From Callorhinchus milii (Eukaryota): DNA of 64,000 nt. The position numbers and the translations under genes were made by a program. Within the stretch, counting starts at the first letter, position 1. The number at the start of each line of letters is the position of its first letter. The DNA is taken from assembly GCF_018977255.1 (NCBI RefSeq), contig NW_024704743.1:24616001-24680000 (forward strand), written 5' to 3'. Positions 9,153 to 55,121 of the stretch are shown piece by piece. The notes beneath the pieces are model-generated. The model had not been told where the DNA came from, made no database searches, and worked only from the letters and a program-made list of their open reading frames with translations.

Positions 9153-9470
9153 TAATAATAATAATAATAATCCTTGCATTTGATATAGCGCTTTTCACGT
9201 CGGGAGGACGTCCCAAAACGCTTCACAGAACACACTGTAAAGTGAATTGACTGTATATTTGTGGGCGAACGCGGCAGCCAATTGTCCCACAAACAGTTGT
9301 AGATTGAAAATGACCAATTTATTATTGTTTTTTTTTGTTTTTTGGAGGGATTATTATTAGGCGTGTGGAGTAAGGAAACTTGCCCAAGGTTTCGCCCTGA
9401 CCTGCCTGGAATTGAACTCAGGTCTCTCGCTTATAAAGCAAGTGCTCTAACCATTGAGCTACAGGACTCC
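9153..9470 (-). mobile_element. tRNA-headed SINE family A, short subfamily, young copy
   Basis: revcomp GGAGTCCTGTAGCTCAATGG...GAGTTCAATTCC (A/B boxes), CORE-like ccttgggcaagtt, L2-type stem-loop, (TTA)n tail; very similar to 54801-55121. Confidence 0.9.
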
Positions 9471-17754: not shown

Positions 17755-18131
17755 GGAATTCTGTAGCTCAGTGGTTAGAGCATTCACCTTGGAAGTGAGA
17801 GACCTGGCTTTGATTCCCAGTAGGGTGCAACGTTGGCCAAGTTTCCTTACTCTACACGCATCTGTTTACCTAACAGTAAGTAGGAAGCTGGTTGTTAGTT
17901 GGTTGGCGGATCGCTTTTCCGAGGATAGTAATTCCTTTCAAACAAAATAATAATAATAAATTGGTCACTCAATCAACAACTGTTTGTGGGACACTGCTAT
18001 GCACAATTGGCTGCCGCGTTTCACCCACAAAATATACAGTCAATTCACTTTACAGTATATTCTGTGAAGGGCTTTGAGACGTCTCAAAGATGTGATAAGA
18101 TGCTATATCAAATGAAAGGATTAGTATTATT
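17755..18131 (+). mobile_element. SINE family A, long subfamily
   Basis: ctgtagctcagtggttagagc head through to the tail. Confidence 0.88.
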
Positions 18132-27081: not shown

Positions 27082-27408
27082 GGAGTCCTGTAGCTCAGTG
27101 GTTAGAGCACTCGCCTTGCAAGTGAGACACCTGGGTTCAATTCCAGGCAGGGTGAAACCTTGGGCAAGTTTCCTAACTCCACACATCTAATAAGAATTCC
27201 TTCAAAACCAAAAACAATAATAAATTGGTCATTTTCAATCCACGACTGTTTGTGGGACACTGCTGAGTGCAATTGGCTGCCGCGTTCGCCCACAAATATA
27301 CAGTCAATTCACTTTACAGTGTGTTCTGTGAAGCGCTTTGGGACGTCCTCCCGACGTGAAAAGCGCTATATCAAATGCAAGGATTATTATTATTATTATT
27401 ATTATTAT
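27082..27408 (+). mobile_element. SINE family A, short subfamily; extra tails follow at 27409-27478 and ~27570-27665
   Basis: A box 27091-27101, B box 27133-27144, stem-loop, long (TTA)n run. Confidence 0.92.
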
Positions 27409-34997: not shown

Positions 34998-35360
34998 AAA
35001 TCCTTGCATTTGATATAGCAGCTTATCACGTCTTCAAGACATCTCAAAGCACATCACAGAATATACATTATAAAGTGAATTGATTGTGTATTTTGTGGGC
35101 CAAACGTGGCAGCCAATTGCACACAGCAGTGTCCTACAAACAGTCGTGGATCGAATGACCAAATTATTANTTTTTTAAGGAATTATTACCGCCAGAAAAG
35201 CAATCCGCCAATAGACTAACAACCAGGTTCCTACCTAATGCTAGGTAAACAGAGGTGTGTGGAGTAAGGAAACATTTCCAACAAATCGCCCTGCTGGGAA
35301 GCAAACCTTGGTCGTCCAGCTTGTGATGCGAGTGCTCTAACCACTATGCTCCAAGACTCC
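34998..35360 (-). mobile_element. SINE family A, long subfamily
   Basis: aatccttgcatttgatatagc...gagtgctctaaccact...gactcc. Confidence 0.85.
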
Positions 35361-45701: not shown

Positions 45702-46561
45702 TGTTAGAAAATGTAGATCTTCACATGTAATCTACTAAAATATAGAGGAAATTTAAGAACTTTAACTATATCAATTAGATAAAATAATGGTAGTTATGTT
45801 ACAGCCTTTGTTTAACTTGACCAGGAGATGACCTTACTTGGAGGGTTTGCTGAAAATAATATGTTAACAGGCCATCCTGAACTGACTCTGTCTGGTTTGA
45901 GTGAAGGCCGAAAAGACAGATAACGGTTTGCAGTTTGTCCAGAACAACTCCAAATAAGGATCGGGTCACTTAAATTGGGATGAACCAGTTGTGTGAAACC
46001 TTGGGCAGACAAAGGAATGAGTAAGGATGTTCTGAACTGAAGGCAGCTGTACGCATGATTAGGAAACCAACACACTACAATTAGGGAGAGCTGGGAAAAC
46101 TCAGCAGGTCAGGCAGCATCTGTGGAGAAAGGAAACTGAGTCAACATTTTGGGTCCACCACCCTTCGTCAGAACGTGGACCCGAAACGTTGACTCACTTT
46201 CCTTTCTCCATAGATGCCGCCTGACCTGCTGAGTTTTCCCAGCTCTCTCTGTTTTGGTTTCAGATTCCAGCATCTGCAGTATTTTGTGTTTTGTTCACTA
46301 TAATTAGGATTGCTTATGCAGCTAACAGCACAGTAGTAGCGCGGGATTAAGAGTGAGCTGACAAGACAATTGCTTTACCGTTCAGGGTCGGAGAACTGGA
46401 TTATATGATTCTGTTTTCTTTGACTCTGTAATTATTGATTGAAATGATTCTGTCTATATCCAATAAATTGAAATTGATTCTGTCTATATCCAATAAAACT
46501 TTGTTACACTACTTTGGATTGTCGGATCATATTTCCAACTCAGGGATCGGAAATCCCAACA
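45702..46561 (+). mobile_element. solo LTR inserted in the CR1 endonuclease coding region
   Basis: TGTTAG...CCCAACA termini; TSD TGTA; duplicated AATAAA block at ~46437-46497; 3' end similar to the LTR at 32845-33548. Confidence 0.85.
46086..46295. mobile_element. palindromic Penelope-type non-autonomous element with a minimal hammerhead core
   Basis: 73-bp inverted arms (46086-46158 and 46175-46247, 5 mismatches); flanking 13-bp direct repeat cactaYaattagg; CTGACGA on the minus strand; CCCGAAACGTT in the right arm. Confidence 0.8.
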
Positions 46562-50105: not shown

Positions 50106-50199
50106 TATATACAGTACTGCCACACCACCTCCTCGATTCCTGGCAGGGCGATAAGTTGGGCAAGTTTCCTTACTCCACACGCATCTGTTTACCGAGTAA

Positions 50200-51411: not shown

Positions 51412-51864
51412 TAGTAAGTAGGAACTTGATTTTCCGAGAATAATAATCGTTCAAAAAAATAAATAATAATTTGTTCACTCAAGCCACAACTCTTTGTGGG
51501 ACACTGCTGGGTGCAATTGGCTGCTGGGTTTTGCCCACAAATAAACAATATTTGTGCAAGGGCAAGTTTCCTTACTCTACACGCCTCTGTTTAACTAGCA
51601 GTAAGTAGAAACCTGGTTGTTAGTCAATTGGCAGATCACTTTTCGGGTATGGTAATCCCTTCAACAAAAAAAAGAAAGATTTATATAAAAAATACATGGG
51701 CACTCAATCCACAACTGTTTGTGGTACACTGCTGTGAGCAATTAGGTGCTGAGTTTCACCCACAAATATACAGTCAATTCACTTTACAGAATGTTCTGTG
51801 AAGCGCTTTGAGACGTCTAGAAGACGTGAAAAACGTTATATCAAATGCAAGGATTATTATTATT

Positions 51865-52887: not shown

Positions 52888-53266
52888 GGAGTCCTGTAGC
52901 TTATTTGTTAGAGCACTTGTCTTGCTAGTGAGAGGATCTGGGTTTGATACCCGAGCAGGGCGAAACGTTAGGCAAGTTTCCTTACTCCACACGCTTCTGT
53001 TTATCTAGCAGTAAGTAGGTAACCGGATGTAAGTCAATTGGCTGATCACTTTTCTGGGTATGGTAAACCCTTCAAAAAAAAGAGAAACATTTATATTAAA
53101 AAAAGTGGCCACTCAATCCACATGGACACTGCTGTTCGCAATTGGGTGCTGGGTTTCGCCCACAAATATACAGTCAATTCACTTTACAGTATGTTCTGTG
53201 AAACGCTTTGAAACATCTACAAGATGTGAAAAGCGTTACATCAAATGCAAGATTATTATTATTATT
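52888..53266 (+). mobile_element. SINE family A, long subfamily
   Basis: ggagtcctgtagct head through to the (tta)n tail. Confidence 0.85.
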
Positions 53267-54800: not shown

Positions 54801-55121
54801 TAATAATAATAATAATAATCCTTGCATTTGATATAGCGCTTTTCACGTCGGGAGGACGTCCCAAAGCGCTTCACAGAATATGCTGTAAAGTGAATTGATT
54901 GTATATTTGTGGGCGAACGCGGTAGCCAATTGCGCACAGCAGTGTCCCACAAACAGTCGTAGATTGAAAATAACCAATTTATTTTGGTTTTGGAGGGATT
55001 ATTATTAGGCGTGTGGAGGAGTAAGGAAACTTGCCCAAGGTTTCGCCCTGACCTACCTGGAATTGAACTCAGGTCTCTCGCTTGCAAAGTGAGTGCTCTA
55101 ACCACTGAGCTACAGAACTCC
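54801..55121 (-). mobile_element. SINE family A, short subfamily, young copy
   Basis: very similar to 9153-9470; intact A/B boxes and stem-loop. Confidence 0.92.

Follow-up and report, generated by a model that had tools for sequence, protein, structure and literature searches.

Structure and Boundaries of the Insert

A 210-base insert at positions 46086-46295 of the window (the whole 64-kb stretch of elephant-shark, Callorhinchus milii, DNA that was analysed) raised the question of whether such a hairpin moves as a ribozyme-bearing element in its own right or was left behind by another element. The results indicated, with a probability of roughly 0.85, that it is a single old insertion in which two short, hammerhead-bearing ends of an RT + GIY-YIG Penelope-like element (PLE) stand head to head within a 13-bp target-site duplication (TSD), likely primed from both strands of a staggered cut. 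The features of the locus are listed below; pLTR positions are numbered from +1, the first C of CUGANGA.

45702-46561, plus strand: host solo LTR with TG...CA ends and a 4-bp TGTA duplication; the PLE stub lies inside it
46073-46085, plus strand: left TSD copy, 13 bp, with a single later T>C; the 13-mer occurs once in the empty sites of LTR paralogues
46086-46174, minus strand: inverted short arm, pLTR -3 to +86, without tail, from the arm alignment to the family
46139-46174, minus strand: decayed minimal type I hammerhead, from the motif reading against the family majority; predicted cut 46143/46142
46174-46172, minus strand: hammerhead stem I, 5' strand, from the motif reading
46171-46165, minus strand: hammerhead CUGACGA, from the motif reading
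46163-46151, minus strand: hammerhead stem II, from the motif reading
46150, minus strand: hammerhead core change G12>A relative to the family majority
46146, minus strand: hammerhead change C15.2>U relative to the family majority
46174, no strand: head-to-head arm junction with a 1-nt overlap (inverted arm at -3, direct arm at +13, gap -1)
46174-46259, plus strand: direct arm, pLTR +13 to +98, with the 3' half of stem II and the pLTR body, without CUGANGA
46183-46190, plus strand: intact GAAACGUU in the direct arm, from the arm alignment to the family
46260-46295, plus strand: PLE tail (+99 to +134), an optional extension of about 35 bp, in the direct arm only; 3' ends in the family are bimodal
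46296-46308, plus strand: right TSD copy, 13 bp, from the repeat comparison and the empty sites in LTR paralogues

The two direct repeats that bound the insert were identical at 12 of 13 positions. In six of the seven host-LTR paralogues examined, the site was empty: the flanks overlapped by 11-13 nt (exactly 13 nt in three of them) and the insert was absent, and the seventh carried a small deletion at the insertion position. Because the 13-mer is single in the insert-free paralogues, the repeats are a true TSD and the insert boundaries are correct. The inverted arms (46083-46158 and 46175-46250) measured 76 nt each and were 92% complementary around a 16-nt centre, with 73 nt of each arm falling within the insert. 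The dimensions given by the first-pass annotation, namely a 210-bp insert, 13-bp repeats and 73-bp arms, were therefore confirmed. Its description of the insert as palindromic held for the arms and for the fold, a single hairpin of -139 kcal/mol (z = -20.9, none of 200 shuffles equally stable), but not for the symmetry, since the plus arm extends 48 nt (46248-46295) beyond the end of the minus arm and this extension includes the PLE tail. Compared with the family majority, the short arm carried five substitutions, three of them at CpG sites, and it ended at +86, 12 nt short of the usual site at about +98.

The host LTR has at least seven further copies in the genome at 75-87% identity. Between 45600 and 46620 the window was nested at three levels, where a LINE ORF2-like start, which we take to be CR1-like, was interrupted by the solo LTR with its 4-bp duplication, and the LTR in turn by the PLE stub. 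No remnant of a PLE ORF was found in the 64-kb window. On the plus strand at 46130-46139, and likewise in the mirror copy, the sequence antisense to the post-cleavage strand resembled a strong 5' splice donor; intronic stub copies could thus provide cryptic donors.

Minimal Hammerhead in the Family and in This Copy

The minus arm carried CUGACGA and a 4-bp stem II; its GAAA is changed to AAAA and its CGUU to UGUU, and both changes (G12>A and C15.2>U) lie at CpG sites. The plus arm starts within the loop of stem II and retains GAAACGUU without CUGANGA. An intact core was present on neither arm, in agreement with the earlier opinion that this copy is probably inactive, and the hammerhead here is probably dead, a passenger from the parent element. 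It had also been proposed that a ribozyme can be pieced together from both arms. This was not borne out: the arms lie on opposite strands, so that a hammerhead dimer cannot form within one transcript, which would hold one sense and one antisense copy pairing with each other.

In the family, the assignment of the minimal type I hammerhead to a Penelope-like terminus was upheld. In the family majority sequence, stem I has 4 bp and is followed by CUGACGA and one unpaired A, and a stem II of 5 bp leads on to GAAA, a palindromic ACGU (CG) and a GUU site. The core was kept in 84 of the 190 family arms that span the hammerhead. Minimal hammerheads also occurred in metagenome loci with related RTs (14 motifs in 12 of 80 loci, compared with 0 in 20 shuffles). 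All four stem I pairs changed on both sides in an alignment of the family with six distant hammerheads, which is small (eight sequences) and made of motifs picked for pairing. From its conserved core and this covariation, we judge the minimal hammerhead to be real at the family level. Divergence within subfamily A was 18% at CpG sites and 3% elsewhere, and 1.9% in the core versus 2.7% in the body; this CpG-dominated pattern, with a core barely better kept than the body, fits neutral decay.

A hammerhead search, proposed earlier as a check, did not recover the motif, as the Rfam hammerhead models matched neither the insert nor an intact family copy. Minimal hammerheads appear too reduced for these models, and the miss is therefore not evidence against the motif. 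A miRNA model matched the insert at 41 bits, against a gathering score of 80, owing to the long hairpin. Energy folding of the monomer favoured a non-hammerhead register (-10.8 versus -8.2 kcal/mol for the hammerhead), as expected for a minimal motif. No other hammerhead families were found among the family loci retrieved from this genome. Copies of an abundant repeat, presumably a tRNA-derived SINE by its B-box, carry GAAAC-UU and weakly resemble the 3' half of a hammerhead at 9364-9394, 17829-17856, 27167-27186 and 35258-35273 of the window, with further copies at 50163-50179, 51565-51581, 52961-52991 and 55018-55031; this resemblance is probably due to chance.

Family Copies and the Parent Element

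Used as a query, the insert returned 2658 first-look candidates in the genome, and all 40 that were scored were full length (88-100%). Exact patterns gave 151 matches for the tail, 137 for the hammerhead and 210 for a 42-mer of the body, with 0 for the reversed controls. The sample was composed of 70 of the tail matches and 30 of the body matches, taken in listing order from the first three contigs; removal of six duplicates left 94 insertions with 139 arms. Two patterns were used against bias to the shape of the query, and all samples were picked through an exact subfamily A match, which for 70 of the 94 was to the tail. Short pLTR stubs were the commonest form in this sample (84 of 94), next to 10 long copies, and 45 head-to-head pairs were counted, with two inverted pieces more than 80 nt apart left out. 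In a search run without a shuffle control, 64 of the 84 short insertions had a TSD of 9-18 nt, with a mode of 13-15 nt and 33% GC. The pLTR 3' ends were bimodal, at about +98 and about +133. Ten stubs (L033, L034, L052, L071, L077, L225, L266, L270, L278 and L285) apparently lie within the 3' part of the GAAAC-UU-bearing SINE, and the near-identical TSDs of some of them suggest a preferred target site.

The long copies run upstream into a pyrimidine-rich 3' UTR and then a broken ORF with a GIY-YIG C-terminus, a CX4CxxC linker and RT motifs. The RT fragment had 68 homologous proteins, the best 65% identical and several with RVT_1 and GIY-YIG in one chain; the closest named relatives were from rays and sharks. 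The EN fragment aligned to the GIY-YIG region of these homologues (E 6e-19), a CCHH-type EN was present in translations of long copies, and Pfam gave no significant match on three broken ORF fragments. Partial tandems of the form pLTR-tail-ORF-pLTR were seen at loci L113 and L207, and an inverted 5'-truncated pLTR was also found on long copies (e.g., L134, L138, L140, L142 and L143). The family thus shows the marks of an EN+ PLE: an RT + GIY-YIG parent, a partial-tandem pLTR, an inverted 5'-truncated copy, a tail at one end and a TSD of variable length. The autonomous-type element that had been sought, with RT and GIY-YIG domains and the same termini, was found in these broken ORFs, and the sequences identify the parent as an RT + GIY-YIG EN+ PLE sharing the termini of the insert. 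The linker occurred in several long copies and conforms to the CX2-5CxxC linker between RT and EN described for the Neptune/Nematis clades in the available part of PMC8557442; by its linker and EN motifs, the parent is placed as a Neptune/Nematis-type EN+ PLE. There was no intact full-length ORF among the 80 matches listed, from 68 scored candidates, so the family looks dead.

At L113, a subfamily B-like 5' pLTR (743-872) and a subfamily A 3' pLTR (1910-2047) flank an internally deleted ORF. With a partial tandem of this type, one RNA could offer two different pLTRs, which could reconcile the one-template and two-template data given below. Near-identical PLE pieces consisting of an inverted tail and the N-terminus of the ORF were found at L209:7330-7700, L211:3340-3680 and L212:1910-2490, 8-16 kb apart, each adjoining an apparent tRNA-type B-box sequence; they possibly go back to one insertion into a cluster of tRNA genes, followed by duplication.

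Position of the Stub 5' Ends

The stubs ended at a nearly fixed position upstream. Among the 79 arms that reach +1, 69 ended at -7 to +1 (mode -3), none ended between -8 and -92, and 10 extended further; the pile-up at -7 to +1 relative to +2 to +40 gave a Fisher p of about 1e-48. At the predicted cleavage site (+29 to +31), six arms ended, with no excess over background (p = 0.29). Loose ends in four contig sets stopped at the same motif. A TATA-like element was located 29 nt before A(-4), a base in an initiator-like context, and the 60 nt upstream of the pile-up were predicted to be unstructured. The pile-up and its spacing from the TATA-like element suggested that it likely marks the start of the element's RNA. 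An extra G, such as a cap might give rise to, was present in 4 of 12 fillers and carries no weight in this respect. That the stubs are run-off cDNAs from the 5' pLTR of the transcript is, on the same sequence evidence, somewhat better supported than an even bet.

A possible though rather doubtful alternative, which keeps the PLE origin, is that the pile-up reflects a processed RNA end, produced by splicing at a 3' site (AG at -4/-3) or by an exonuclease that stopped at a protein-bound hammerhead. The pile-up falls exactly on the stem I 5' edge and also on an AG behind a pyrimidine tract, with no AG over the 185 nt from -189 to -4; in addition, an intron of D. virilis ends at helix I according to the available parts of PMC4209133 and PMC2377424. 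However, 19 single stubs had short unrelated filler or nothing after the TSD and no upstream exon in common, the nearest GT-purine donor was no closer than -159, and the 29-nt spacing of the TATA-like element fits a transcription start. A distant PLE family also argues against processing. Its mini-palindrome, one insertion seen in two assemblies, starts at -9, which is 6 nt before its own stem I edge at -3, and its own TATA box lies at -37; as read from the sequence, the start follows the TATA box and not the edge of stem I. This head-to-head mini-palindrome was observed in metagenome contigs (L348:132-216 and L349:84-168) in which the hammerhead stems differ; the form is therefore found beyond the lineage of the elephant-shark family. 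A literature search by title and start of the abstract, with most subscription papers, Repbase and Dfam outside its scope, returned no description of a 5' pile-up or of twin priming in PLEs.

Assembly of the Head-to-Head Pairs

Exactly one tail was present in 81 of 85 pairs among all retrieved loci, a set in which two loci give two rows each and many were selected by the tail. The asymmetry was also seen in the body-selected pairs, where 10 of 11 combined one tailed and one short arm, and in the tail-selected set none of the 34 partner arms had a tail. Tailed and short arms reached the 5' limit equally often (12 versus 12, both in 7 pairs). The junctions were distinct in 44 of the 45 pairs, comprising 11 with overlap, 2 flush and 32 with filler, and the insert and the copies with its junction had no private changes in common. 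These results indicated that each palindrome was built anew. Together with the pile-up, the one-tail rule suggests that both target nicks were primed on uncleaved RNA, with run-off at the transcript 5' end, and the palindromes would arise most simply from priming at both nicks followed by end-joining.

The arms of a pair shared 12 non-CpG changes, compared with 2.6 expected from shuffled pairs; shared CpG changes showed no excess (4 versus 6.6), which indicates that CpG decay was unshared and that the two arms often come from one source. This sharing agrees with a published hypothesis (Arkhipova et al. 2013, PMC3846280, as given in the part of that paper available to us), by which the mirror arm of the same PLE would arise through self-priming or fold-back on one (antisense) template and not through priming at both nicks. 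We regard this origin as unlikely. The two outer ends coincide with the known RT start sites on the sense strand and lie directly against the TSD, filler separates the arms in most junctions, and the trimmed arm can be either. Moreover, the variant at +74 differed between the arms in six of the seven informative pairs (among 55), for which one template plus mutation gives a p of about 1e-4, and one pair combined subfamilies A and B.

The first-pass annotation had instead proposed a separate non-coding family mobilised in palindromic form, in which a master hairpin RNA with its ribozyme would be copied whole by a PLE enzyme. Hundreds of similar short copies with TSDs and the existence of non-autonomous PLE derivatives (PMC8557442 and bioRxiv 10.64898/2026.07.22.740005, in the parts available) speak for such an element, as does the recurrence of the insert's exact junction in 4 of its 30 best matches. 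The latter copies were selected by similarity, however, and the diversity of junctions in the unbiased sets, together with single arms and long ORF-bearing copies in the same series, largely refuted the proposal; its transcript would also be the -139 kcal/mol hairpin, which hides the ribozyme. We consider it very improbable. Two copies 32 kb apart on one contig (L251 and L252) could be counted in its favour, as they share a junction and two variants including that at +74; their TSDs differ. Their junction, with CUGG for CUGA, recurs at L026 and L042 and can be attributed to microhomology of 3-4 nt, with -6..-3 matching +1..+4. The alternative of a DNA-transposon MITE or microRNA precursor, as the short, palindromic, many-copied form and the weak Rfam miRNA match might imply, was refuted by the variable TSD (9-18 nt), asymmetric ends, variable centre and RT + GIY-YIG parent, and by an Rfam score of half the gathering score. 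A self-propagating palindrome or MITE with a fixed junction, TIRs and a fixed TSD was rejected as a candidate on the 44 distinct junctions of 45, the asymmetric ends and the TSD range.

Proposed Origin and Comparison with Known Systems

The reading we prefer, two PLE ends primed from both strands, builds on the observed TSD, parent ORF, asymmetry of one tailed and one short arm, variable junctions, 5' pile-up and hammerhead covariation. In the proposed sequence of events, the GIY-YIG domain would nick the two strands of AT-rich DNA at points about 13-15 nt from each other. One nick would prime at the tail site (about +133) and the other at the inner site (about +98), similar to the start sites of the PAc enzyme in vitro. 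With priming in the 5' pLTR of the transcript, the cDNAs would traverse an uncut hammerhead and fall off the RNA 5' end at about -4/-3, the likely transcription start. The two cDNAs would then be trimmed and end-joined with short overlaps or filler, creating a new palindrome each time. The stub at this locus, without a promoter, has decayed neutrally since its insertion.

The following comparisons refer to the parts of the cited sources that were available to us. Similar to Pen2a_Av (PMC3846280) and the general PLE layout (PMC8557442), the insert has an inverted 5'-truncated pLTR beside a direct one, and its family shows a 30-40 bp tail at one end only, a TSD of about 8-15 bp, and TATA-like and Inr-like motifs in the pLTR. 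In contrast to Pen2a_Av, truncation has reduced both partners of the insert to pieces of the pLTR, and no ORF separates them. With the minimal hammerheads of Cervera and De la Pena (PMC4209133), the motif shares a short stem I, an unpaired base before stem II, G10.1-C11.1, a palindromic 15.2-16.2, the lack of a loop 3 and an occurrence mostly as dispersed single motifs, whereas the insert carries core changes. Close pairs of minimal hammerheads on opposite strands were reported in that survey in 2014, and PMC6765202 cites Lunse et al. on PLE hammerhead dimers. The insert is accordingly less novel than the first-pass annotation, which saw an under-described system, had supposed: the inverted pLTR with a one-sided tail and TSD, and the opposite-strand minimal hammerheads, are already in print (PMC3846280, PMC8557442 and PMC4209133). 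In the available text of PMC4209133 and two supplements, we found neither the elephant-shark family sequence nor stub 5' ends piled up next to the motif.

In vitro work on the Poseidon element PAc of Anolis carolinensis (Frangieh et al. 2024, PMC11167929) reported that the RT starts at two internal sites, which define the tail, and that both target strands are nicked and extended. The targets were AT-rich, a dimer was predicted and the template was mainly uncleaved RNA; in the portion available, the authors report that the strands did not differ in start site. The PAc start sites match the two 3' ends of the insert family (about +98 and about +133). The one-tail-per-pair rule and run-off ends were not found in the available text of this study. 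In contrast to Poseidon, which is without it, the parent of the insert has the Neptune/Nematis CX2-5CxxC linker, and its ORF appears to start after the tail and not at stem II, as that of PAc does. Animal non-LTR retrozymes (bioRxiv 10.64898/2026.07.22.740005) are likewise non-coding, hammerhead-bearing and derived from PLE pLTRs, but they form head-to-tail tandems with at least two ribozymes per strand, whereas the arms of the insert stand head to head and each strand carries no more than a single, damaged ribozyme. A non-LTR retrozyme was ruled out for the insert, as its arms lie on opposite strands and not in a head-to-tail tandem.

Implications for Penelope-Like Elements

The insert is ordinary retrotransposon debris with a known kind of footprint, and its mechanistic value is modest. 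For annotators, such hairpins resemble MITEs or miRNA precursors. The family bears on the formation of tandem and inverted PLE structures, called open in the available part of PMC8557442, and on the role of the hammerhead, called open in the corresponding parts of PMC4209133 and PMC11167929. The counts yield predictions that can be tested in the existing in vitro PLE system, namely that each pair has one tail and that the ends lie at the presumed start and not where the ribozyme cuts. At even odds, the dispersed minimal-hammerhead stubs of animals would be run-off cDNAs resembling "strong-stop" products, formed by a dimeric PLE enzyme that starts on one target strand from the fixed tail site and on the other from the fixed inner site, both in the 5' pLTR of an uncut transcript, and runs off its capped start. 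If this is true, the stubs would record the PLE transcription start as a fossil map, and the hammerhead would not cut the template that is used for insertion in vivo.
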